Below, in pieces: positions 50,477 to 63,767 of a stretch of 64,000 nucleotides of DNA (position 1 is the stretch's first letter; every line of letters begins with the position of its first letter). Source of the DNA: a virus; the IMG/VR virus record IMGVR_UViG_3300042553_000685; one strand, written 5' to 3'. The translations under genes were made by a program, and so were the position numbers. The notes beneath the pieces were generated by a model, which saw only the letters and a list, made by a program, of their open reading frames with translations, had not been told where the DNA came from and ran no database searches.

Positions 50477-50899
50477 TTGACATCACTAAAGGTAGGAAAT
50501 ATGCAATTAGAAAGATTATTGGCTTTAGAGGCTCTAGAGCGACTTCTTGTTCGCCGTATTCGTAATGCGACTATTGAAGATACCTCTCTGGTATTCAACC
50601 TCAATGAGGGGTTGAGTACCAAACCTTATAAAATAGATATAGCTTCCTTACTACAAGGTACGCTCGAGTCTACATATTATAATTACCTGGCCGGCCGCAT
50701 GCTAACTGAGGGCTACACTTATACTGCAGTTGAGGGAGGTGAGATAGTAGAGTCACCTCGTGGTGATATCTATCAAATACATGGCACAGACTGTAGTTGC
50801 CCTCAGCGAGGTTACTGTAAACATCTCATACTGCGAGACTGGCACCTAACATACCGAGCGCGGCAGAATGATCTACGTCATCGCGTAAAACCTAGGTAG
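50477..50899 (+). CDS. SWIM-type zinc-finger protein (likely ATG start at 50501)
   Basis: CxCx(6)CxH: DCSCPQRGYCKHL (about nt 50789-50827). The track ORF starts at TTG 50477; ATG 50501 follows AAGGTAGG. The 3' end overlaps the 3' end of the portal gene by 8 nt (convergent). Confidence 0.7.
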   Translation: MTSLKVGNMQLERLLALEALERLLVRRIRNATIEDTSLVFNLNEGLSTKPYKIDIASLLQGTLESTYYNYLAGRMLTEGYTYTAVEGGEIVESPRGDIYQIHGTDCSCPQRGYCKHLILRDWHLTYRARQNDLRHRVKPR

Positions 50900-52232
50900 A
50901 GCTAATGGCATCGGGTAATCCAGTAATGGAACGTATGTGATCCTTATCTCCATCTACTAGGAAGCCCATGTCATGCATCTGCTTAATGGCATCTATCAGT
51001 GCTGCTAGATCAGTGGCCCTCCCCGGTAAACGAGTTATATAGCCCGTGTTGTTAGCCAGTGGGTATAGTGCAGGATCGAAGTTCAACCTGATTAGATTGC
51101 CTATGACCTGCTCAGTGAAGGCGTGTATCACTGTATCGAATATACTGTTGATCTTACCATCGAAGAGTTCTAGTTGAATCTCACTGGCCCGGCCTGTACC
51201 AAAGGTAGTCTCTCTATTCTGCATCAGTAGATTAGGAATACCCATACCCATTAGCATATTGTTATCGCAGAGTGATATGGCTCTTTCGAATGAGTCGCTG
51301 AAGTTATTACCTGTAGTTAGGGCCCCCACCTGTACCGGCTGCTCCTTACTGAGCTGTGTTAATACTAAACCAGAGTCGGTGCTTAGACGACGGAGTGCGT
51401 CCTCTGCCTGCTCCGCTATAGTAGTGGTTATCTCTGTACCATCGGGGGCCTCCTCTACTACGCCCGTATTACCGGGTGGCACTATTACGTATATGAGAGG
51501 GGTACCATAGCGGTCTAGAGCTATGAGCATCATATCTCGAAAGGCCCGCTTAAAGATAGAGTAGTCTAGCACGCTAGTGAGGCAACTGGTACCCCAGGGA
51601 TTATTACCCTTAGTGTTGTAATTAATGAATAGCCGTTTGTGACTAGGGAGTCGTACATGACTACCTACCACGTCTACTCTCTTAGGGGGGTCTCCTATTC
51701 TATAGGGAGGCAGAGGCACCCAGTAGCCCGACTTGTATTGACTAGCTGTTACTGTATCACCATCTACTATACGGCCATTGTCGTTAGTGATGAGCATGAC
51801 CTGTAGTGGGTGATAATTAACTATGTCATCTAATACCGTAGCCGGCATACTATCTCGCGTGCCGTGGGCGTATATCTGCTCGCTTAGACTGAAGCCATAC
51901 GTCATAATAGACTTCACGCAATGAGATATCCATGTCTTGGCTCTATTGCGTAGTTGGTCATCTATGAAGTTCTTAATGCGTTTATCCCCGTGTTGATAGG
52001 GCCCGACCTTATTAAGTACGCTCAGTGCTATAGAGTCGAGGCCCTGCGCTATGATAGGCTCCGCCTGCGCTGCCTCATCCCAGGCACTCAGCTGCTGATA
52101 GGTAGGCTTGCCTGCTCGTTTATAGCCACCATCCTCAGATAGATAACTAGTGGCTAGGCCTAGGTGCTCCATAGCGTAGATAGTGCGCCGGCGTATTGCT
52201 GGCGTGGTGGTATTACGTACTTCCATATTCAC
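50892..52232 (-). CDS. portal protein (candidate)
   Basis: 446 aa, the first large gene of the head module, upstream of protease/scaffold and capsid. The call is from size and position, with no unique motif. Confidence 0.55.
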   Translation of the reverse strand: MNMEVRNTTTPAIRRRTIYAMEHLGLATSYLSEDGGYKRAGKPTYQQLSAWDEAAQAEPIIAQGLDSIALSVLNKVGPYQHGDKRIKNFIDDQLRNRAKTWISHCVKSIMTYGFSLSEQIYAHGTRDSMPATVLDDIVNYHPLQVMLITNDNGRIVDGDTVTASQYKSGYWVPLPPYRIGDPPKRVDVVGSHVRLPSHKRLFINYNTKGNNPWGTSCLTSVLDYSIFKRAFRDMMLIALDRYGTPLIYVIVPPGNTGVVEEAPDGTEITTTIAEQAEDALRRLSTDSGLVLTQLSKEQPVQVGALTTGNNFSDSFERAISLCDNNMLMGMGIPNLLMQNRETTFGTGRASEIQLELFDGKINSIFDTVIHAFTEQVIGNLIRLNFDPALYPLANNTGYITRLPGRATDLAALIDAIKQMHDMGFLVDGDKDHIRSITGLPDAISST

Positions 52233-52659: not shown

Positions 52660-53022
52660 TTAGATGGCTTGCTTCGATTTTGTAGTCGTAGCTCGCGTGG
52701 AAACACCCATAAGCTTTTTTGCCTCCGCTTGGGCCTTCTCACGCCCTTTATCGTCAATGAGATATAGGGTACTGAATACCTCCATGAAGTATTGTTGGTC
52801 CTCGACACACCAGTCGTCGGTGATACCATCGGGTTCGTAGTCGTAGGCATCGCTATCCAGAACCCGGCCATTGATGTTAACAATACAACGGATAGCTAGT
52901 ACTTCTTCAGGTAATAGGCCGCACTCCTTATTATAATGCTTGATCATCTCGCGACGGTCGTGAACCAGGGGCGGCTTGAAGCTAACCTCGAATTGGCCCT
53001 TCGGTAATGTGATAGTGTGCAT
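52660..53022 (-). CDS. hypothetical protein (120 aa)
   Basis: ATG preceded by GGAGAG at a 5-nt spacing. Divergent from the giant ORF. Confidence 0.55.
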   Translation of the reverse strand: MHTITLPKGQFEVSFKPPLVHDRREMIKHYNKECGLLPEEVLAIRCIVNINGRVLDSDAYDYEPDGITDDWCVEDQQYFMEVFSTLYLIDDKGREKAQAEAKKLMGVSTRATTTKSKQAI

Positions 53023-53066
53023 AACGTCTCTCCATGTATGTGCTATAAGATATCAGATAAGCTGAT

Positions 53067-53075
53067 TGATATAAT
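53067..53075 (+). promoter_or_regulatory. candidate extended -10 promoter (TGaTATAAT) upstream of the giant ORF
   Basis: Read at 53067-53075. A second near-match, TGcTATAAg, is at 53041-53049. The first sits only 3 nt before ATG 53079, so the true start may be ATG 53151 or the mRNA may be leaderless. Confidence 0.3.
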
Positions 53076-53078
53076 CCT

Positions 53079-56000
53079 ATGAGGCCACTGCCCGCTAAAG
53101 TAGGCAGTTTTTCAGCTATAGCTCTATTTAATAGGTTTTGTACTCTACTGATGGATATCAATAGCTCACTATTCTCTAGTAATCGATTTAATGACAGTGC
53201 TCGTTGGAATGCTCTCTACCGTATTCCTGAGGATACGCGCAGTAGATTATTACAGGGCTATAATCCTCTAGAAGTATTAATGGACCCTAACTTTATACCG
53301 CCTGGTACCGACGCCTCTATGGAGATGGTGCTAGCTGATGCTTTCTATGATAGGGTAGTTGATACTAGTAGTAGTCGAGCTGCTATCTCGAGTCTGTGGG
53401 ATAGTATGGAGGGCCCCGCTCGTCAGGAGTACTTCGAATACATGGCAGGTATGGGGGGTACAGCTACTCCTGCCCGTACCCAGACCGATGATATGCTTAA
53501 TTGGATGGCCCAGCGAGATCAGCTCACTATGCGGTCTAACCTAGAGGGCATAGACGATGAACGCCGCCTACTACTAGAGAATCGCTCTAGCATGTTGGAT
53601 CTAATATCTGATGATGGTTATAATGTACGGCCCGGCTTACTACCTATTGCCGCGCTAGTAGATACAGCAGAGAGAGAACTGCGTATAGACATTTATCAGT
53701 TCCAGAATGAGCGCGCTATAGATATGGTGGGTGAAGCTGTAGAGAGAATGGCTGGTAGTGGCCAGGGCGGCCGTGTGGTAGTTCGTATGGCTGCTCCATC
53801 TGAGACTGATGGAGACTCTCGTAAGAATTATGATATCCTGGGCCCCAACATTATGTTTTATAAGCGGCTGTCTTATCTACGGGACCGCTTCGGGAGTAAT
53901 GTAGATATAGATATCCAATGGGCTGATAGACGTAATCACCCTAAGTTCTTCGTTAGTGATAGGGCCGCTCTCATAGGTACGATGAACGTGACGCGGCCAC
54001 TAGGACAATCGCTAGAACAGGCGGGCTCTAATGTAGAGTTCACGCGGACTATACGCACTAACCTGACCTATAGCCAAATACAGGATGCCGATAGGGGTAT
54101 ACTGCCTGACATTATAACGCGAGCTGATAAGTTATACCTACAGGCCCGTGATGTTATGGATAGATTAGATGGTGGCGATAGAGTTCTATTCACGGGGCAG
54201 GATAGTATAGGTGGTGCTGGTGATGTTAATACTGCTCTACGCCGCCATATAGGTGAGCTCATTAATAGGCCTACTATCGATGGTAAAACGGGCCGCCTCT
54301 ATATGGTACTCAATCAGGTGTTCCTGCTCAAGCACGATAAGACCCTGATGGCAAGCCAGCTTAAAGGAGAGATGGGAGAGAATCCTGAGCATGAGAGAAC
54401 ACTATCGGGTTACCAGGCATACATGCAAGCCAGAGAGCAGGAATACTCTAAGCTCCAGGCTAATGTATTAGATCTGGTTATAGAGGGCCGCGCTCGTATA
54501 GGAGTAGATGTACATACCTATCGAGAGGATGTGCAGGACCCTATGAGCCGCTTACTACTGAGCAACCAGAAACTAGCTGCTGAGTTATCTCAATCTAATT
54601 ATGACGTGGCCCGCTGGATTAAGGAAAGCCGGGGTACTGATGTTAGTGATATGGCTAACGTGCTGAGCACGTATGGTTTCTATAGTGGAGATCTCGAAGG
54701 CCGGCAGCGTATGGCCCGACAATTATTAGCTATAGCTAGCGGTAATATAGAGCCGACCGCAGTACCGCGCAGCCACGTTAAGGCATACCTGGCAACCTAC
54801 GAGAATGATGTCATAAATCAAGGGGCCGGGCCTGGCATGCAGAATATAAACAATCGTCAGGCCTTCGATATCCTGGGTGGTAGTCAGGGATCTAGTAACT
54901 ATGGCCTTAATTCTCTGGCAGATAATGATGATCCCCTGAGCCGCCGACTCGTTAACCAGGAGATCAATATAATTTACGATAGGGTGGGTGGGACAAGCCT
55001 TCTCAGTCTCTCTGATGAGGAGCGTGATGAGGAGAATAGGGAATACGCGCGGGCCTTCTATAAATTACAGAGCTCCCTGGGAATACAACGAATAGGTGAG
55101 ACTCCTTATATTGGTCGGGACCGTAGGTCTATGTATGGTAATAGGGTAGATAGAGGAGCCATACTGGACCTAATCAGCGAAATAGAGAGAGTTAATGCGG
55201 CTGTCGGCTCTGAGATTATAGGCGTACAGCGAGACTACGATGGTCTTAACCTAGAGGGCGCTACTCTAACACTCAATAAGGGCCTACCTACTCAGCGTGT
55301 ATATAGATGGGGTGCCTATAAGAACGCTAGTGGACGGGGGCCCGCCGCCTTCATAGATATAAGTGGGGGTCGTCAGATAGAGTCAGCTGAGCTATTCAAT
55401 ACTGGCACAATGCGTATGGAGCTGGCTATGGAACGTGATGGTCTTGGTGTGGGTCTGGATCCTCGTAGACGCCTGCGCCTTAATCCACTGGATGTAGTAG
55501 TGGGTCTTATGAGCTCTATTGCGTTAGAGAGTGAGACTACTCGTTTAGTGCGGGCCCCACTTATGGAGTACCAGAGGTACTATAGCCCTGATAATATACG
55601 CGCCGCCCAGGCCGTACAGCGCGACCCCGGCGCTCAGTATCAGAGTGCCATAAACTTCTTCGAGAAGCTATTGGGTGTGAGTGGTCTTGACCTAACCACA
55701 GACGAGGGTACTAGTAGAGTACAGCAGGGCCTCAGTAACCTGACCTCCTTGTTCTACTCTAGTGACCCTGATCTAGATCGTATACGAGACCTAGCGAGTA
55801 TATCTCGTATTGATAGCCGCCGTAGAGTGGCCTTCGAGGAACTATCTAACATATTTCTTACCTATGCGCGGTCTGTAGATGAGAGAGGCCTACCCATAAT
55901 AGACCTAGAGGCACACCGTAGAGGGGCCCTTAATCTTGCCGCTAATAAGCTATATGAGATTATGGATCAGGGCCCTATGTTCGCTGATGTGTTATTCAAG

Positions 56001-59000
56001 TTTATCGAATCCCAGAATGATAGCCGTTATAAGACTGATGTGCGCGAGAGGTTAAAGGAGATACATGATAGTGCATTCGCCGCGTTCCTTACTCCTACAC
56101 AGGCTCGTAATTATGGTTCTACACAAGCAAGTAATCGTTTACTGGCCTATGGCTTTGGTCAGGGTAGGCAGCCCGCTGGTATATCTATAGTTAATGCTGC
56201 ACTACGTCGTATTAAGGCTAATGAGACTGCCTTTAGTAATCTGAGTGCCTTTGCTTATACTGCTAGCCCACTGCCTATAGGTCCGGTATCTGACCTTGGT
56301 GTAGGCGATGACTTCCTCTTTGTACGAGTTGCTGAAGGTAATATAGACTCTACGGCTACTGATGAGAGCCAGTACTTTACTGGCTATAGTAATGTGCTAC
56401 CTCTATCTCGCCGTGCCACTGCCAGTGAGGTCTTCGACCTATCCATCATACGCAGTACTGGTGTGGGGGATATCATACGGCGAGATGAGCTGAGCGAATA
56501 CATGAAGGCAGTGAGTCATTTGGGTATAGACCGCTCCCTGCTAGAGGCAGAGTTTGATGCCCGCGGCGATAACCTACTCCGGTTCTTCTTTGATCCTAAT
56601 AAGCCGGATCAGGTGCCTCAGCGTCTTAAGAACGTGATTGGTATGCGCCCGCTCATGGATATAAGCGAGGGTTATACCCAGGTATTGGAGTTAGTTAGTC
56701 CCACTAATACTGGTAAGGTCATACCTGAGTTGACCCCCGTTAGGTATCGAGCCCGTTACGGAGGTAGCGATGTAGATGTACTGCAGGGCAGTATGTATCA
56801 GGACGCATACCTAGCTGACCTGCGCGCCGGGTTAGATGCACGTGGACTAGATAGTAGTATCGTAGATGATAGCTATCGCTATGGTGCTATATTCAGTGGT
56901 AGAATATCTCGCTTTATGAGTAGTGAGGCGGCTGTAGAATTAGAGGCTATACGGTATGAATTAGCCGACCGCCTGGGTATCGATAGTGAGGATATACCCA
57001 CTGAGGATGATAGCGTACTGGCCGAGCTATTCCGCGCTACTATAGTGCAATCTCAACTCTTCGCTAGTAGAGAGCGTGGATTGATAGGCTCTGGACGGGC
57101 CCGCCCTACTGTTATGATTATGGCACTGGAGGGAGCCTATAGTGACTACGCGTATGCTAACCCTCTACATAGGGTAAGACGCGGCTTCCTAGATCAGGCT
57201 ACTAAGAGTAGTAAGGCTAGTCTATTAGGACGAGACTGGACATTCGATAATGTACTAGTGAGTAGCGATGACCGTATTGTATTCGATGAGAGAGAGCAGC
57301 GCTACTATCTACTAGATAGAGAGGGGCGTCGTAAGCAGGCTATCACTAGTCGTAGTGAGATGCGCGTGTTCCTAGACCAGATAGAGAGTACATCTCGTAA
57401 TCCTAATATGGGGGCCGCTATGGCTACTAGTGCCGCAGCCGGTATACGCGGCGAGTACGCTATTGAGCAGCTACTACAGGTTAGTAGGCTGACTGGTAGC
57501 GATGCTACTAATGAAGTGCAGGTGCAGATACAATTCCTACGCACTCTACTTGAGGGTGGCTCTCGACGGGTAGAGGCAGAGCGCGGTCTGGCTAAGATAG
57601 TCCCTGTGTTCCTGAGCGAGGATATTATGCGTAGTGAGGTGTTCCCCACTATACAGCAAGGGGGCTATCATAGTGCCCTCGAGATAGAGGACATCCAGTA
57701 TATAATCAGCCCTACTAACCTGAAGAGCTACGCATTCAACCACGGGGCTACTCTACTTACTTATAATGGCGGGGAGCTATTCCGTCGGGGGGTACTAGAA
57801 CGGAATGATCAGCAGATAGCGGCCGCTCTCCTTTCCATAACTGATTCGCGTCTCTTTAGTAATAATAGCAATATCAATATAGACAGTGTCTATATAGAGA
57901 TAGCACAGTTGGCAGCGCAGGGGCGGCTCGGTAATTACTATCGTGACCTCTATATGTCTACTATGCTGGAACTTATGCGGAGTGATAAGCTAGGAGATGG
58001 CTCCCCTCATCTCGAAATAGGTAGGAAGCTAGTACGCGGGGGTGATGGTGCTATTAATAGACTACAGAGTCCTGTTCTAGGGGCCATTGATATATCAGAG
58101 ATAATGACAGCCCTGCGTAGTGGAACTAGTAGCGGGGCATTATCCGATAAGGTAGGTCTGATAGTAGATGCAGCAGATGCAGCGCGCAGGGGTTATGTAG
58201 ATACTGGGGCTATGGGCCGCGGCTTTGAGCGCGCTGCTATAGCCGGTAATCTAGAGATTATGATGCAGCTCATGTCGCTTAATAATACCCTAGAGCTCAA
58301 GACTACGCCAGTGACTGGTAGCGATAGTATATCTCGTCATGCGTATGCGGCTATGAGCGCTATAGCAGGTGTTACGCAGGCAGATGAGATAAGCGTAGGC
58401 CAGGAGAACGTGGCCGTTATGCTCGATAGATTGAGTAATTACTCTCGCTATGTAGTGCTATATAATGCCGTGATGGGTAGTAGCTCTAAGGTGCCATTGA
58501 GTAGTAAGGACACTGCGCAACTAGAAATGCAGCATATAGTATCTAGTCCCTTCATGGCTAACGTGGATAAATTCAAGCGTGATGGTAGTGTTGATAGTAT
58601 GCGTAGGGCTATCCTTGGCGTCATGAAGATGGCCATAGGGGCAGACCCCAATAAGATAGCGGTGGATGACATCCCTATGTATGACCTGGCTAGTCTGGAC
58701 TTCCACGCTAACTCTACGTTGGGAGAAATACTACTAGGGGCCTATAACGATGCGCGGGCCCCATTAAGCGATATAACTAATCTACGCGAACGATACAGGC
58801 AGTTCCACACTGCCTTGTCTCTACTCGAGAGTGCCAGTGATACTGACATGGTGTCATATACTAGAGGGTCGGGCCTCGATATTACTAATGTTACTCATAC
58901 TATACTTGATGAGATAGCGACATGGATGGGGCAACCTGCTGGGACTGATAGAGATACTCTGCGTAATGTAGTGCGCCAGTCACTTCGTGTCCTGAAGAAT

Positions 59001-62000
59001 GATATATATGCCCATGCGTCTCGCTGGCGTCTAGCAGGGGATAAGGTACTGGGTGTAGAGGCTACTGAAGCTACCGTGCAGTCAATGGGCCAGAGGGGTC
59101 TTCGTCGTATAGCTTATGAGTTCCCCTCCTTCCGTATAGAGGGGAATAACGTTGTATTCAATACAACTATTAAGGATAGGGGATTTATCCTGAGTCCTGA
59201 GGACGTGAGGATAGCAGGTATCCAGTTCGGTAGCCACGAGAATGAGATAGCTGCTGCTACGGTAGATAAGTGGATTATGCTGGCCCCCGGTAGTGCAGTA
59301 CGCGATATCTTCGAGAAGGTGGCCATTGAGTCTGGCTCGAGGACTACTGTTGAACTGGAGGGCCTCAGTGACTTCCAGATACAGGAGTTGACTCGGTTCC
59401 AGGAACTCAACAACACTTATGAGGCCCGCGTTTATAATGACCTGGCGAGCGCATATCTGCAGTCTATCACTGGTAATAAGATAGGCGTGACAGGTACTAC
59501 TGGTGTGGGGGCCGCTAGCTGGTATGTACCTGTGCGCGGCGCCGTACTAGCAGAGGCCACTATGGAGCGCTTCGGTACGCGAGGTAGTCAGACACGAGAG
59601 GAGATACTTACTAGATTAGGGGACCATCTTAAGAATAACCTGTCTGTTATTGGCCAGTCAGGTGATAAGAGAATTGGTCGTAGGTTAATACAACAGCAGA
59701 TATACGCTATAACTGAGGGCCTCAGTATAGCGGGCATGTATGGGCTGGAGGCAATAGTAGATAAAAGTAAGAACTTCCAGAGCAAAGCGGCCGGTATAAG
59801 AAAACTGGCTCCTGATTCACAGGCAGCTGAATACGCTCAACTAGAGATAGAAATTAAAGTTGAGATGGATAGATTCAGTAGCATGAAATTCAGCGGTAGC
59901 GGGGATTCTCTGATATCTACTCTAGGTGAAGCCGAGATGGGCACAATACTAGAATCTCTGCCTGGAGCTGAAACTCATAAGTATAGAGATCTGGGTCACT
60001 TACCTGTTATTATCTCCGGGCTCATGATAGGTAGTCATGGCCCGTCCCGCTCTATCATACCTGATAATATGCGTATCTACATTGACACTAATGCATTAGG
60101 TAATAGGTTTGATAACCTGGATCTACTACAGGGCCGCATACGTAAGAATCCCATAGACCTATCCTTCTTCAGTGATACGCGTGGTAAGGATGGTGCTGAG
60201 ATGCTGAATATATTCTCTACTAGACTAGATAGTCTAGAGAGAACTATTAATGCCGTGACCTCTGCTGTAGATACGTATTTAGAAGGTAAGAGCCCCCGGG
60301 GCACTGATTTACATAATAGAGGCGTGGCTCTCATAGCTCAGTATAGGAAGCTGGTAGATAACGCAAACGCCGCCTATGCAGTGGAACTAGATACAGTAAT
60401 GGCTAATCGTGCAGCGCGCGATTCATTATTCATAATGAATAGTACTCTGCAGGCTGATATGAGTATGTTCTTCACTGAGCTGGAGTTAACGAGAGCCTGG
60501 ATTCAACGTAGCCCGCCCCCTGGGAACACCCATCTCGATAAGCTGGTGTTCGGCTTAGATACACTCAATAGTATTAATAACATATACCGGGACCTAACTG
60601 GCAGTGGCTTTAACTTCTTTGATGATACTCGTAATAAGTCGTTGACTCTACTTAATCCTATTAGCTTTATAACTAGTAACCTAGGGGACTTCGATGGGGA
60701 TACCTTCAGCGCTATATTCTTCAATTACTCTCAAATGAAGTTGCAGCGCGATGATATGCTGGAACGAGCTAAGGAACGGCGGGAGATGGCATCTCAGGCC
60801 GCTGATCCCGCTAAGCGTACCATTCTAGAGAAGCAAGCTAATGACCTAGATATGCGCGCCAGTGCTTTACTGGATACTATACAGCAGGTAACCACTAATG
60901 CTAATTGGAATGAGTATACCGACTCAGTGTATAGCTGGGTAGCGGGCTATATGAAATTAGATAAGGGTATGCTGGAACAGCGAGGTATAGAACATGCCCT
61001 GGTATTAGTAGAACAGTCCCGCGGTCTCTTTGGTATGATGGAGGACGTATACGCGCGTATACAGCCGGCCCATGAGCCCCTATTAGAATTAATACAGCAG
61101 AGCAGAACTGATAATGCAGTTGATATAGTTAATAGATTATCTACCTCTACAGACCAGAACATACTAACCGATCTCGTTAATAACCCTGATACGGGGCCAT
61201 TCGTGCGGGCTAGTCTACATGATATCCTGAGCGCTACAGGTAATGATCAAGAAGAGAAGGCCTATGACTTCCTGCATAAACTAACTGCTGTTAATGCCCG
61301 CGATAATCTCAGCAAGTACATGAAGCGCGCTGATGGTAGTGTCATGAGCGGCGGCCAATTCGATATGATGCAGAAGGTACTGGGCCAGGCAGGTAGTGTA
61401 ATCCTCGGTAAGACGTATAACACTACCGTGGGTATGCTATACGAGCGCTCCCCTATCATGGCTGTGTCTCACGCACTAGAGAATAGCCCGGCTCTACAGG
61501 ATGACATGCGCCGTATACTAATCGATCAGGGTATGGCAGGAGGCATGAGCGCGAGTGATGCTAACCTAGAGGCCGATAGTAAGATAGTGGATATACAGAG
61601 ACTGGCTCGCCAGAGTAGAACAGAGGTAGGCGAGGTAGGCACATTCCTGCAAGAGATACAACAAATGCTACGGGACGCTATTAAGCCTAAGATGGGGGGT
61701 GCTGAGTTCCTAGAGAACTTATCGCAGTACCATAAGCGCTTTGTAGATGCTGTCGATGATGTGGAGCGCCAGCGTGTAGTAGATGATATGAGTAGACTAC
61801 TACCATCTATAACTCCTCTATTTAAGTTAGATGCGTATATAGGAGCTCATAAAGAATTACTGGCATCAGCTACTAATGATGCCCAGGACTCTAAGATTAA
61901 TGATCTGCTGACTAAGCTATCCATTGGAGAAACTGAGCAGTTAGATTTATCTCGTCGATTGAGCGTACTGCGAAGAGATGAGATAGGTACCCATAGCCGC

Positions 62001-63767
62001 GCCCTCATAGCCAGTTATCAGCTACGTCAGGACCTAGTAGGTATGACGGCTGTATTCGCCTTCGAGCGGGCTATGCCAACCGATAAGGCAGGTAACCCCA
62101 TTAGCTCTGGTAGAGGCCTAGCAGAGAGTGTAGAGACCTACATAAATAGTGAGCCCGCGCGGGCCGCTCAGATAGATGCTCTCATAGCCGGCGGCATCAC
62201 TAATGGCCTCACCGAGATGGAGATAGAAGTAGAAGAGTTTCAGAACTTCACTCGTGACGTAATAGGAGATAAGCGCTTCCAGGATATGGGAGCGGATACT
62301 AAGCGTATATTAGCTATGAACTTCCTACGTAGTAGGGAGAGTGCATCACTCTGGGCTAATATTGATGGTAGTAAACTACTGCGCTTCGCTATTAATGATA
62401 GTACCCGCTCCACACTATACGGAGGACAACTAGAGGATGTACTTGGTCAGGATCTGATTACTGCCGCTGGTGACCTTACTGGCTCAGGAGCTAGTCCGCT
62501 GGTTAGATCACTGTTACAGGCTGTATCGGCCGGGAAGATAAACGAGCCTGAGCAGGTAACACGGGCTCTCGAGTCTCTTATGGATACCTTCACTCACGCT
62601 GATGGTAAGCGCTATGAAATAGCAGACATCTTTAGCGTATTACTCAATAGCGGTACCCCTAGCCCAGCTGATAAGGAGATAGCAGAGTTTATTCAGAAGA
62701 CAGTTCTCACAGATGAGACAGCCACTAGTCGATTAGTTACTTATGTTCGCGCTACAGCGCTAGGTCAACAGGTAGATACAGCCGATAGACTAGTAGAAGA
62801 GCTACGGGACTATGAGAGTCGTGACGTCGATACGCGCTATATAAAACTGCTACAGGATATGGGTGTCGCTCCAGATAGGGCTAAGGAGTTATCAGCTCGT
62901 CGGCGCGACTATCTACTGGCCGGCTCACCCCCTGATGTGGACCCACTGGATCCTCGCCCGCGACCAGATCGCCCCCTCTTACGCGTAGTAGATGATCTAC
63001 CTATTCTTAACAATACTGCCGGTAATCTAATGGATGTACTTCTATTCCCCTTATTAGCGTTGGCAGGAGATATGATTAGTAGTGGCGGAGCCCGCCCCGA
63101 GGCAATGCAGCAGACTATGGGTAATATGCTAGGCGCTATGGCCTACGTAAGCGCCCCAGCAGGTAACCAGATGGGACGTTTCGCTGCAGGTACTCTGATG
63201 AGTATGGGATTCAAGGGCCGCTTAGCAGGTCAACTACACGAGGACTATACAATTGGTGTCGGTATGCTATTAGCACAGGAGATAGCCTTTGGCGCAACAG
63301 CTCAACTCGCAGGCCGCTATATCATCAACCCATTCGTAGAGAAGACACTCGGTAAGGCTCCCACAATAGACTCTGACCCATTCGCGGGCCTGCGTAATGT
63401 AGCTAGCAACGTCATCACGGGGGCATTGAGCCTCGTATCAGCAGGCTTCGTAAATAAATTACTCCATCGTGGGCTAGAGGTCAGTATGCAGCGTAGTGTA
63501 GCCCCCGTGGCTCTAGACGCTGTTAGTGCCGGTATACGCGCTACTCAAGAAGCTATTAATCAGGCTCGCATGGAACGAGAGGATAATGCTGAAACCGAGG
63601 TCGTAGATGACGCGGGCTCCCCTGTTGAGTTCTTCGTACAAACTATATTCAATGGTGATGAATACGACACCTATGACGCCCTCTATATGAGTGACCTAAC
63701 ATTAGATCGTCCTAATAGTATGGCCTATCGAGATGAGAGCGAGAGTTACTCTATGGATCTGGTTTAA
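53079..63767 (+). CDS. giant multidomain protein (3562 aa): PLD-like N-terminus, two-barrel-RNAP-like DFDGD core, C-terminal hydrophobic helices; candidate virion-packaged/ejected RNA polymerase
   Basis: A single uninterrupted ORF with core phage codon style. Motifs are detailed in the features and findings below. The ORF is certain; the function is inferred. Confidence 0.85.
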   Translation: MRPLPAKVGSFSAIALFNRFCTLLMDINSSLFSSNRFNDSARWNALYRIPEDTRSRLLQGYNPLEVLMDPNFIPPGTDASMEMVLADAFYDRVVDTSSSRAAISSLWDSMEGPARQEYFEYMAGMGGTATPARTQTDDMLNWMAQRDQLTMRSNLEGIDDERRLLLENRSSMLDLISDDGYNVRPGLLPIAALVDTAERELRIDIYQFQNERAIDMVGEAVERMAGSGQGGRVVVRMAAPSETDGDSRKNYDILGPNIMFYKRLSYLRDRFGSNVDIDIQWADRRNHPKFFVSDRAALIGTMNVTRPLGQSLEQAGSNVEFTRTIRTNLTYSQIQDADRGILPDIITRADKLYLQARDVMDRLDGGDRVLFTGQDSIGGAGDVNTALRRHIGELINRPTIDGKTGRLYMVLNQVFLLKHDKTLMASQLKGEMGENPEHERTLSGYQAYMQAREQEYSKLQANVLDLVIEGRARIGVDVHTYREDVQDPMSRLLLSNQKLAAELSQSNYDVARWIKESRGTDVSDMANVLSTYGFYSGDLEGRQRMARQLLAIASGNIEPTAVPRSHVKAYLATYENDVINQGAGPGMQNINNRQAFDILGGSQGSSNYGLNSLADNDDPLSRRLVNQEINIIYDRVGGTSLLSLSDEERDEENREYARAFYKLQSSLGIQRIGETPYIGRDRRSMYGNRVDRGAILDLISEIERVNAAVGSEIIGVQRDYDGLNLEGATLTLNKGLPTQRVYRWGAYKNASGRGPAAFIDISGGRQIESAELFNTGTMRMELAMERDGLGVGLDPRRRLRLNPLDVVVGLMSSIALESETTRLVRAPLMEYQRYYSPDNIRAAQAVQRDPGAQYQSAINFFEKLLGVSGLDLTTDEGTSRVQQGLSNLTSLFYSSDPDLDRIRDLASISRIDSRRRVAFEELSNIFLTYARSVDERGLPIIDLEAHRRGALNLAANKLYEIMDQGPMFADVLFKFIESQNDSRYKTDVRERLKEIHDSAFAAFLTPTQARNYGSTQASNRLLAYGFGQGRQPAGISIVNAALRRIKANETAFSNLSAFAYTASPLPIGPVSDLGVGDDFLFVRVAEGNIDSTATDESQYFTGYSNVLPLSRRATASEVFDLSIIRSTGVGDIIRRDELSEYMKAVSHLGIDRSLLEAEFDARGDNLLRFFFDPNKPDQVPQRLKNVIGMRPLMDISEGYTQVLELVSPTNTGKVIPELTPVRYRARYGGSDVDVLQGSMYQDAYLADLRAGLDARGLDSSIVDDSYRYGAIFSGRISRFMSSEAAVELEAIRYELADRLGIDSEDIPTEDDSVLAELFRATIVQSQLFASRERGLIGSGRARPTVMIMALEGAYSDYAYANPLHRVRRGFLDQATKSSKASLLGRDWTFDNVLVSSDDRIVFDEREQRYYLLDREGRRKQAITSRSEMRVFLDQIESTSRNPNMGAAMATSAAAGIRGEYAIEQLLQVSRLTGSDATNEVQVQIQFLRTLLEGGSRRVEAERGLAKIVPVFLSEDIMRSEVFPTIQQGGYHSALEIEDIQYIISPTNLKSYAFNHGATLLTYNGGELFRRGVLERNDQQIAAALLSITDSRLFSNNSNINIDSVYIEIAQLAAQGRLGNYYRDLYMSTMLELMRSDKLGDGSPHLEIGRKLVRGGDGAINRLQSPVLGAIDISEIMTALRSGTSSGALSDKVGLIVDAADAARRGYVDTGAMGRGFERAAIAGNLEIMMQLMSLNNTLELKTTPVTGSDSISRHAYAAMSAIAGVTQADEISVGQENVAVMLDRLSNYSRYVVLYNAVMGSSSKVPLSSKDTAQLEMQHIVSSPFMANVDKFKRDGSVDSMRRAILGVMKMAIGADPNKIAVDDIPMYDLASLDFHANSTLGEILLGAYNDARAPLSDITNLRERYRQFHTALSLLESASDTDMVSYTRGSGLDITNVTHTILDEIATWMGQPAGTDRDTLRNVVRQSLRVLKNDIYAHASRWRLAGDKVLGVEATEATVQSMGQRGLRRIAYEFPSFRIEGNNVVFNTTIKDRGFILSPEDVRIAGIQFGSHENEIAAATVDKWIMLAPGSAVRDIFEKVAIESGSRTTVELEGLSDFQIQELTRFQELNNTYEARVYNDLASAYLQSITGNKIGVTGTTGVGAASWYVPVRGAVLAEATMERFGTRGSQTREEILTRLGDHLKNNLSVIGQSGDKRIGRRLIQQQIYAITEGLSIAGMYGLEAIVDKSKNFQSKAAGIRKLAPDSQAAEYAQLEIEIKVEMDRFSSMKFSGSGDSLISTLGEAEMGTILESLPGAETHKYRDLGHLPVIISGLMIGSHGPSRSIIPDNMRIYIDTNALGNRFDNLDLLQGRIRKNPIDLSFFSDTRGKDGAEMLNIFSTRLDSLERTINAVTSAVDTYLEGKSPRGTDLHNRGVALIAQYRKLVDNANAAYAVELDTVMANRAARDSLFIMNSTLQADMSMFFTELELTRAWIQRSPPPGNTHLDKLVFGLDTLNSINNIYRDLTGSGFNFFDDTRNKSLTLLNPISFITSNLGDFDGDTFSAIFFNYSQMKLQRDDMLERAKERREMASQAADPAKRTILEKQANDLDMRASALLDTIQQVTTNANWNEYTDSVYSWVAGYMKLDKGMLEQRGIEHALVLVEQSRGLFGMMEDVYARIQPAHEPLLELIQQSRTDNAVDIVNRLSTSTDQNILTDLVNNPDTGPFVRASLHDILSATGNDQEEKAYDFLHKLTAVNARDNLSKYMKRADGSVMSGGQFDMMQKVLGQAGSVILGKTYNTTVGMLYERSPIMAVSHALENSPALQDDMRRILIDQGMAGGMSASDANLEADSKIVDIQRLARQSRTEVGEVGTFLQEIQQMLRDAIKPKMGGAEFLENLSQYHKRFVDAVDDVERQRVVDDMSRLLPSITPLFKLDAYIGAHKELLASATNDAQDSKINDLLTKLSIGETEQLDLSRRLSVLRRDEIGTHSRALIASYQLRQDLVGMTAVFAFERAMPTDKAGNPISSGRGLAESVETYINSEPARAAQIDALIAGGITNGLTEMEIEVEEFQNFTRDVIGDKRFQDMGADTKRILAMNFLRSRESASLWANIDGSKLLRFAINDSTRSTLYGGQLEDVLGQDLITAAGDLTGSGASPLVRSLLQAVSAGKINEPEQVTRALESLMDTFTHADGKRYEIADIFSVLLNSGTPSPADKEIAEFIQKTVLTDETATSRLVTYVRATALGQQVDTADRLVEELRDYESRDVDTRYIKLLQDMGVAPDRAKELSARRRDYLLAGSPPDVDPLDPRPRPDRPLLRVVDDLPILNNTAGNLMDVLLFPLLALAGDMISSGGARPEAMQQTMGNMLGAMAYVSAPAGNQMGRFAAGTLMSMGFKGRLAGQLHEDYTIGVGMLLAQEIAFGATAQLAGRYIINPFVEKTLGKAPTIDSDPFAGLRNVASNVITGALSLVSAGFVNKLLHRGLEVSMQRSVAPVALDAVSAGIRATQEAINQARMEREDNAETEVVDDAGSPVEFFVQTIFNGDEYDTYDALYMSDLTLDRPNSMAYRDESESYSMDLV
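53937..53987 (+). other. HKD motif 1 of the PLD-like domain (HPKFFVSDRAALIGTMN)
   Basis: Fits HxK(x)4D(x)5G(T)xN. A second, degenerate half has HVK at 54774-54782 and GGSQGSSN at 54876-54899. Confidence 0.65.
60507..60720 (+). other. beta-prime-like double-psi beta-barrel signature (RSPPPGNTH ... NLGDFDGDTF)
   Basis: DFDGD is at 60687-60701. Compare E. coli beta-prime NRAPTLH...[13 protein letters not shown]. Confidence 0.55.

Follow-up and report, generated by a model that had tools for sequence, protein, structure and literature searches.

The giant gene and the domains along it

The window analysed here is a 64,000-nucleotide stretch of viral DNA (IMG/VR record IMGVR_UViG_3300042553_000685) that is ~96% identical to Microcystis phage Ma-LMM01 and to the related MaMV-DC, -DH01, -CH01/02 and -DL01/02, the contractile-tail cyanophages of the genus Fukuivirus. 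It contains a giant open reading frame (ORF) whose orthologue, Ma-LMM01 gp080 (MaLMM01_gp080), is annotated 'hypothetical protein'. This is the largest gene of Ma-LMM01, occupying ~7% of the genome, and its ~390-kDa product is matched end to end by a single PHROGs entry, phrog_31006 (3562-position profile, function unknown). In our analysis, the N-terminal region of the giant protein almost certainly has the fold of the phospholipase D (PLD) superfamily, with two HKD-bearing halves in one chain. The features of this region are as follows.

53079–63767, + strand: giant ORF, 3562 amino acids (aa), orthologue of gp080
53610–55088, + strand: predicted PLD-superfamily catalytic domain, aa ~178–670, two halves with helical inserts (AlphaFold2, Foldseek, BFVD)
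53610–54068, + strand: PLD half 1, aa 178–330 (Pfam PLDc_2 and DSSP of the model)
53937–53987, + strand: HKD motif 1, HPKFFVSDRAALIGTMN, aa 287–303, read as H287-P-K289-FFVS-D294-RAALI-G300-T-M-N303
54018–54038, + strand: QAGSNVE, the 'N-x-E' element after motif 1, with G316 and E320 invariant
54069–54269, + strand: helical insert separating the halves, aa 331–397 (DSSP of the model)
54270–54998, + strand: PLD half 2, aa 398–640 (model and superposition on two-domain PLDs)
54774–54899, + strand: HKD-like motif 2, H566-V-K568...G604-S-S-N607 (homologue alignments and IMG/VR loci)

A predicted two-HKD fold conserved across the family

The AlphaFold2 model of aa 150–680, computed from a 20-sequence alignment, has a mean predicted local distance difference test score (pLDDT) of 84 and a predicted template modelling (pTM) score of 0.86. 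Its only low-confidence internal segment is the loop at aa 580–593, which splits motif 2 between the strand carrying the lysine and the strand carrying GSSN. The secondary-structure elements follow the same order in both halves, and in each half the HxK opens a strand while the G-S/T-x-N closes the next one. The strands of half 1, as assigned by DSSP, are RIDIYQ, RVVVRMAA, DIDIQWAD, KFFVS, AALIG and FTRTIR; those of half 2 are GRLYMVLNQ, IGVDV, IEP, AYLATYEN, DILGGSQGS and residues 630–634, with long helical inserts between them.

A Foldseek search of the PDB with this model gave 70 matches at E ≤ 1e-3, with a probability of 1.00 for two-HKD PLDs, and the best 50 of the 70 are all PLD-superfamily enzymes, nearly all of them two-HKD. 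The matches include the bacterial PLD 7e0m (E 1e-6), human PLD1 and PLD2, Streptomyces PLD, the PLD3/PLD4 exonucleases and vaccinia F13, aligned over 510–630 columns. The query-normalised template modelling (TM) score is 0.35–0.39 for two-domain targets compared with 0.19 for the single-domain NucT, and this roughly twofold difference indicates that both halves of the model superpose at once, as one rigid body. The superposition, together with the equivalent positions of the strands, is indirect evidence that the modelled halves are arranged so that their motifs meet. In BFVD the Ma-LMM01 protein itself ranks highest (UniProt A0A7J4, first 1187 aa; TM 0.96, root-mean-square deviation 1.8 Å), so that an independently built model agrees with ours, and the PLD proteins of that database align over 487–526 columns.

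The solved two-HKD PLDs (Streptomyces 1v0w/2ze9, human PLD1/PLD2 6ohr/6ohm, and 7e0m) are likewise single chains with two α/β halves, each bearing an HxK...G(S/T)xN motif, and the predicted fold superposes on them over both halves (Foldseek probability 1.00, E 1e-6 to 1e-5). However, identity is 10–13% and the TM score only 0.35–0.5. The phage domain also differs from these enzymes in its ~65- and ~80-residue helical inserts, in the loop interrupting motif 2, in its lack of lipid-PLD profile matches and in its position at the N-terminus of a ~390-kDa phage protein.

In sequence searches, the Pfam family PLDc_2 matches aa 192–306 with E 5.4e-5 and 23.5 bits, below its gathering threshold of 27 (query aa 150–340), and PLDc scores 17.9 bits on the window protein, below its threshold of 21.9. 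When the 674-aa N-terminus was scanned whole, the sole Pfam match was the 28-residue PLDc motif model (E 0.016). PLDc_2 is matched by 8 of the 20 family members (best E 4.6e-9), a sequence link between the family and the PLD superfamily. A PDB search with the single N-terminal sequence returned a spurious BAF match only, and the whole giant protein returned no match. Pfam searches for envelope-degrading domains in the larger homologues P0025 and P0037 gave nothing beyond a weak PLDc_2 match.

An earlier note, made from the DNA sequence, had proposed that the N-terminal ~600 aa form a two-HKD PLD-superfamily domain, and the PLDc_2 match (E 5.4e-5), the conserved His, Lys and Asn residues described below, and the AlphaFold2 and BFVD models all bear this out. 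The pseudo-dimeric, two-half fold that it expected of a structure prediction is what the model and its Foldseek matches to two-HKD enzymes display. The strand–helix pattern it read ahead of motif 1 is also in the model (strand 200–205, RIDIYQ; helix 211–226; strand 231–238, RVVVRMAA). The peptides it quoted are all in place: RIDIYQF is aa 202–208, VLDLVIEGRARIGVDVHTY is aa 463–481, and the two motif 2 peptides, SHVKAYLAT and ILGGSQGSSNYG, are aa 565–573 and 598–609, with nt 54774–54782 encoding H566-V-K568 and nt 54876–54899 encoding G600–N607. A degenerate second half is present as it described, with one amendment: VLDLVIEGRARIGVDVHTY forms a helix and the second strand of that half, and the first strand is GRLYMVLNQ (aa 403–411). 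The hidden Markov model search that it suggested against PLDc and PLDc_2 gave below-threshold matches for half 1 and no match for half 2.

An exhaustive HMMER search with aa 1–700 against 1.84 billion cluster representatives found 43 homologues, of which 41 have E ≤ 1e-10. Nearly all are 3,500–5,400 aa long, are homologous to the window protein over its full length, and share 24–49% pairwise identity with it. In motif 1, H287, K289 and N303 are present in all 43 aligned homologues and the acidic residue (D/E) in 41. In motif 2, which in the family reads PRQ-H-V-K ... GSSN, H566 and K568 are found in 40 of 41, the lone exception being a badly aligned fragment, and N607 in all 39 aligned sequences. 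Further invariant positions include ILGPN (253–257), G316/E320 of QAGSNYE, GEMG (430–433) and D477. Conservation of both His/Lys/Asn sets across so deeply diverged a family points to a functional PLD active site, and on these alignments the domain is very probably catalytically competent.

We also searched IMG/VR with an alignment of the distant DFDGD region (see below) instead of the PLD region, and recovered 16 loci. Wherever the upstream part is present, the PLD domain lies in frame with both HKD motifs intact; this includes six contigs that a PLD-based scan had missed (L024, L027, L028, L030, L032 and L033), all of which carry the domain. Among GenBank phages, the PLD domain is confined to the Ma-LMM01 group. 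Judged from these alignments, the domain is a fixed N-terminal module, obligately attached to the giant-protein family. At one locus (L023:2390-13498, on a contig of 135,938 bp) a single stop splits a 1471-aa PLD-bearing ORF from a 2231-aa DFDGD-bearing ORF; the stop may reflect a sequencing error or recoding, or the gene may truly be split there. The library protein P0003 (1467 aa) resembles this case.

Could the HKD strings be coincidental or relict, and the region a structural spacer? The window protein's own Pfam scores do fall below the gathering thresholds and half 2 is invisible to sequence profiles. Against this, the strict pattern H.K.{4}[DE].{4,6}G[ST].N has a single occurrence in the giant protein, and shuffling the residues of the full-length protein 20,000 times produced it in only 5 cases. 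In addition, the six catalytic-type residues are essentially invariant across homologues of 24–49% identity and in independent loci, and the model with its PLD fold is confident. We therefore regard a chance motif or a dead pseudo-enzyme as very improbable.

The DFDGD core and the polymerase question

Far downstream of the PLD domain, the giant protein carries a second set of invariant sequences.

60507–60701, + strand: motif pair of invariant columns, R2477/P2480/G2482 (RSPPPG, 60507–60524) and GDFDGD, aa 2536–2541 (60684–60701)
61389–61421, + strand: AGSVILGKTYN, the invariant AGxxxLGKxYN block downstream of DFDGD (family alignments)

GD[FWY]DGD is found in almost every full-length homologue, P0036 alone reading GDLDGD, and also in the IMG/VR loci. 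An invariant RxxPxG precedes it by 55 aa, and an invariant QxxRDxxK block also lies downstream. The RxxPxG–DFDGD pair resembles, as a sequence motif, the β′-type double-psi β-barrel Mg2+ site of two-barrel RNA polymerases (RNAPs). More invariant clusters lie at aa 1175–1188, 1352–1361, 1497–1506, 1549–1556, 1804–1816, 2771–2781 and 2862–2869; the cluster patterns (K1175..QRxKNxxG, GxxxDxxxxN, K1549..HG, AGxxxLGKxYN, QxxRDxxK) match no known family. One of the invariant clusters might be the second (β-like) barrel. A long coiled-coil insertion follows directly after DFDGD (aa ~2545–2620, ~60710–60940; pLDDT 84–89).

The earlier note had called this core RNAP-like. The near-invariance of GD[FWY]DGD and RxxPxG upholds the claim as far as the motif goes, but it drew no support from profiles or fold. 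No RNAP family of Pfam matches the giant protein or the DFDGD-region alignment. PDB profile searches with the DFDGD region and with a barrel-only alignment returned coiled-coil and antibody noise only, the coiled-coil insertion dominating those made with the DFDGD region. Comparison by hhalign with E. coli rpoC (β′) and rpoB aligned only nine residues, DFDGDxxxx (E 0.052 for β′). The AlphaFold2 model of aa 2455–2925 is poor, with a pLDDT of 57 and no strands; the coiled-coil insertion is its only confidently modelled part. Taken at the motif level, we judge an RNAP-like core somewhat more probable than its absence. An N4-type (T7-like) virion RNAP was considered and rejected, as it has no support and the conserved motif belongs to the two-barrel kind.

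Giant virion proteins have been identified by the same motif before. These are gp66 of the crAss-like phage phi14:2 and gp96 of Thermus phage P23-45, a tape-measure-fused RNAP, which carry DFDxD/DFDGD; neither has other detectable RNAP sequence similarity, a point the P23-45 authors made of the rest of their protein. The DFDGD of the present family is thus the kind of signature by which the crAss-like and P23-45 virion RNAPs were first spotted. The differences are that the giant protein studied here comes from a contractile-tail cyanophage, that its RNAP role would be assigned from the motif, and that Ma-LMM01-type phages have been described as lacking an RNA polymerase (PMC9927357). In a transcriptional study, host sigma-70-like promoters precede all temporal gene classes of Ma-LMM01 (PMC5780444).

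No PLD domain is reported for gp66 or gp96: the crAss-like and N4 virion-polymerase papers that the literature search listed make no mention of phospholipase D, nor does the P23-45 paper mention a phospholipase. The statement that there is no precedent for a PLD module fused to an RNAP-like core therefore holds for the literature searched, but has to be narrowed, as UniProt automatically names the Ma-LMM01 orthologue (A0A7J4) 'PLD phosphodiesterase domain-containing protein' and the bare PLD motif in the giant protein is thus not new. For the diverged second half, the family of some 40 or more giant members, and the coupling to a DFDGD core beside the portal gene, no description was found in the literature searched. 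What is new is the two-HKD architecture, its obligate attachment to DFDGD giants of 3,500–5,400 aa, and the divergent orientation of the gene relative to the portal gene.

Possible virion delivery and substrate of the putative phosphodiesterase

The gene next to the giant ORF bears on where the protein acts.

50892–52232, − strand: portal-like gene, gp083 'tail protein' in Ma-LMM01 (phrog_113 portal, E 1e-37), divergent from the giant gene

Going by this profile match, the public 'tail protein' annotation of gp083 is probably wrong. The portal gene is followed by a phrog_32941 gene and then by that of the major capsid protein. The portal–giant arrangement recurs in the distant loci L008, L010 and L016 (71-kb, 72-kb and 252-kb contigs), where the portals match phrog_113. 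According to Table S3 of PMC5780444, gp080 has a 'middle' promoter of its own; the gene is silent at the 0- and 1-h time points, is expressed at those of 3 and 6 h, and belongs to the same expression class as the portal gene. This timing fits a protein made for packaging. From the gene neighbourhood and the middle/late expression, we consider delivery with the virion slightly favoured.

The same expression data leave room for a protein that is never ejected. It would work in the cytoplasm at mid-infection, in genome processing, replication, packaging or nucleic-acid scavenging, with the PLD domain as its nuclease. With its 'middle' promoter, gp080 is expressed from 3 h together with most replication and morphogenesis genes. 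Moreover, we found no proteomic evidence of packaging in the literature, and the idea of ejection was motivated by the RNAP identity, which profile searches and structure prediction did not confirm. Several points speak against a purely intracellular role. The position beside the portal gene, the phrog_32941 gene and the major capsid protein gene is kept in distant relatives, and the size and DFDGD motif of the protein parallel known packaged giant proteins. Late expression also does not argue against packaging, as N4-type virion polymerases, being made for packaging, are expressed late too. On balance, we find an intracellular role doubtful.

Concerning the substrate, the only sub-family models touched by half 1 in PADLOC and NCBIfam are those of Nuc-like PLD nucleases: DpdK in 7 of 20 members (best E 0.0015; 12–15 bits against a cut-off of 100), DrmC (of DISARM; E 0.006) and NucT in one of 20 (E 0.056). 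We take motif 1, with its 'GSxNLT ... NxE' flavour, to resemble Nuc and Zucchini. The Nuc-like enzymes are ~150–200 aa, have a single HKD and homodimerise, whereas here a diverged second half is supplied in cis. With scores far below the cut-offs and an architecture of two fused halves, the phage domain falls outside the Nuc-like single-HKD family; by these profiles, that family is its nearest branch and not one to which it belongs. The same model sets gave no match to any cardiolipin synthase, phosphatidylserine synthase or lipid PLD. The best PDB sequence-profile matches of the N-terminal alignment are a poxvirus 'virion nicking-joining enzyme' (E 0.005, covering only a 23-residue motif) and the PLD3/PLD4 exonucleases. 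PLD3/PLD4 and the poxvirus K4 and F13 proteins are two-HKD folds; PLD3/4 and K4 act on nucleic acid, K4 and F13 are virus-encoded, and K4, 'virion' enzyme by its PDB entry name, is a structural precedent for a packaged PLD. They differ from the phage domain in being separate, unfused ~400-aa eukaryotic or poxviral proteins with sequence similarity limited to the motif.

Cyanobacterial membranes consist mostly of glycolipid (galactolipids and sulfolipid), with phosphatidylglycerol as the only major phospholipid. Since the weak profile matches are all Nuc-like and these membranes are poor in phospholipid, we lean on a nucleic-acid phosphodiester as the substrate class, at even odds.

The competing idea of an entry phospholipase starts from the leading end of an ejected protein, which would hydrolyse or transphosphatidylate host phospholipid so that the giant protein and the DNA could pass the cytoplasmic membrane. 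By a narrow margin, lipid PLDs (7e0m, human PLD1/2 and Streptomyces PLD) have the best Foldseek E-values, although those of nucleases differ by no more than roughly a factor of ten. The PLD module sits at the N-terminus of a protein whose gene adjoins the portal gene of a contractile-tail phage, and the enzymatic domains of ejected phage proteins usually attack the envelope, as the T7 gp16 transglycosylase does; the P23-45 tape-measure protein carries a metallopeptidase. A working analogy is offered by Tle5 (PldA/PldB) of the type VI secretion system, PLD effectors that are injected by a contractile machine and target phosphatidylethanolamine-rich proteobacterial membranes. Set against this are the lack of any match to lipid-PLD, cardiolipin synthase or phosphatidylserine synthase profiles, the restriction of the available substrate to phosphatidylglycerol in cyanobacteria, and a hydropathy analysis that found no hydrophobic membrane-insertion segment in or near the domain. 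An entry phospholipase is thus, in our assessment, fairly unlikely.

A third chemistry would be covalent DNA handling, in which a nicking-joining or Tdp1-like reaction holds or reseals a genome end or nick at ejection or at the start of transcription. The poxvirus enzyme that gives the best PDB sequence-profile match is itself two-HKD and packaged with the viral RNA polymerase, and two conserved His/Lys pairs are in keeping with a two-step transesterification. That match is weak and confined to the motif, however, and the data do not favour joining over hydrolysis, which makes this reading a long shot.

Our leading explanation is a virion-delivered nucleic-acid phosphodiesterase. Residues ~178–670 would form a single-chain, pseudo-dimeric two-HKD enzyme, with half 1 supplying H287, K289 and N303 and half 2 supplying H566, K568 and N607. 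By analogy with characterised PLD enzymes, both His/Lys pairs would meet at the interface of the halves, where one histidine would attack the phosphodiester to give a phosphohistidine intermediate and the other would protonate the leaving group. The giant protein would be packed in the head and exit with the DNA, and its PLD module would act on nucleic-acid phosphodiester bonds, nicking or trimming DNA or RNA and not hydrolysing membrane lipid. The proposed chemistry is that of the Nuc, NucT, DpdK, PLD3/4 and vaccinia K4 branch. We put the probability of the whole chain, from two-HKD enzyme through virion delivery to nucleic-acid substrate, at about 0.45.

Several results weigh against this interpretation. 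On the side of the enzyme, half 2 (aa ~400–640) has no Pfam PLD profile match in the window protein or in 10 homologues, and the similarity between half 1 and half 2 is not significant by BLASTP or hhalign, so that only the modelled structure and the placement of the motifs reveal the internal duplication. Motif 2 itself deviates from the canon, as its acidic residue is shifted one position later, to K+6, and it is interrupted by a 28–50-residue loop that varies in length and sequence. As to the substrate, the sub-family matches are weak (E 1e-3 to 0.1) and limited to the motif region, and Foldseek does not tell nucleases from lipid PLDs. In this phage the domain is acidic (isoelectric point 5.15; family mean 6.6), unlike an expected DNA-binding surface; isoelectric point and hydropathy did not separate lipid from nucleic-acid substrates. 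According to PMC5780444, Ma-LMM01 infection leaves host transcript levels largely unchanged, so any nuclease action would have to be local or specific and not bulk. As to delivery, no virion proteomics for gp080 was found in the literature, and the MaMV-DH01 paper calls mass spectrometry still needed.

A broader scheme would join the two ends of the protein. In it, Ma-LMM01-type phages and a wider uncultured clade would package a ~390-kDa single-chain two-barrel RNAP with an active N-terminal PLD domain and eject it with the DNA, coupling an entry-linked phosphodiester reaction (nucleic-acid nicking or processing, or a membrane breach) to the first round of transcription. We offer this only tentatively and think it unlikely on present evidence. 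If the RNAP reading is true, virion polymerases would gain a new architecture; should the protein prove to be packaged, a phosphodiesterase would be added to the known repertoire of phage-injected enzymes, and one would have to ask again how these cyanophages begin early transcription. Independently of this, the giant protein of Ma-LMM01, which serves as reference phage for Microcystis aeruginosa, a toxin-producing bloom former, gains its first well-supported enzymatic domain, one that is inseparable from the DFDGD-bearing core across the whole clade. H287, K289, H566, K568 and D2537/D2539/D2541 are the residues open to test.

Relatives of the giant gene lie on viral contigs of 31 kb to 252 kb (loci L008–L016 and L023–L033). 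The three distant loci tested, L008, L010 and L016, encode a major capsid protein of Ma-LMM01 type (phrog_30785), which suggests a broad uncultured clade related to Fukuivirus.

The 5′ end of the giant ORF calls for some remarks. Residues 1–150 (53079–53525) are conserved only in the closest homologue, P0001, with 48% identity over the matched stretches; this leader is not confidently modelled and is far more variable than the PLD domain that follows it. The start itself is uncertain (window 53066–53153). A −10-like TGATATAAT lies at 53067–53075, 3 nt ahead of the annotated ATG at 53079, and the published promoter string TATTATAAT is found at 52929, within the upstream ORF. P0001, the closest of the distant homologues, begins opposite residue ~33 of the window protein. 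The second in-frame ATG, M25 at nt 53151, may be the true start of the giant ORF.

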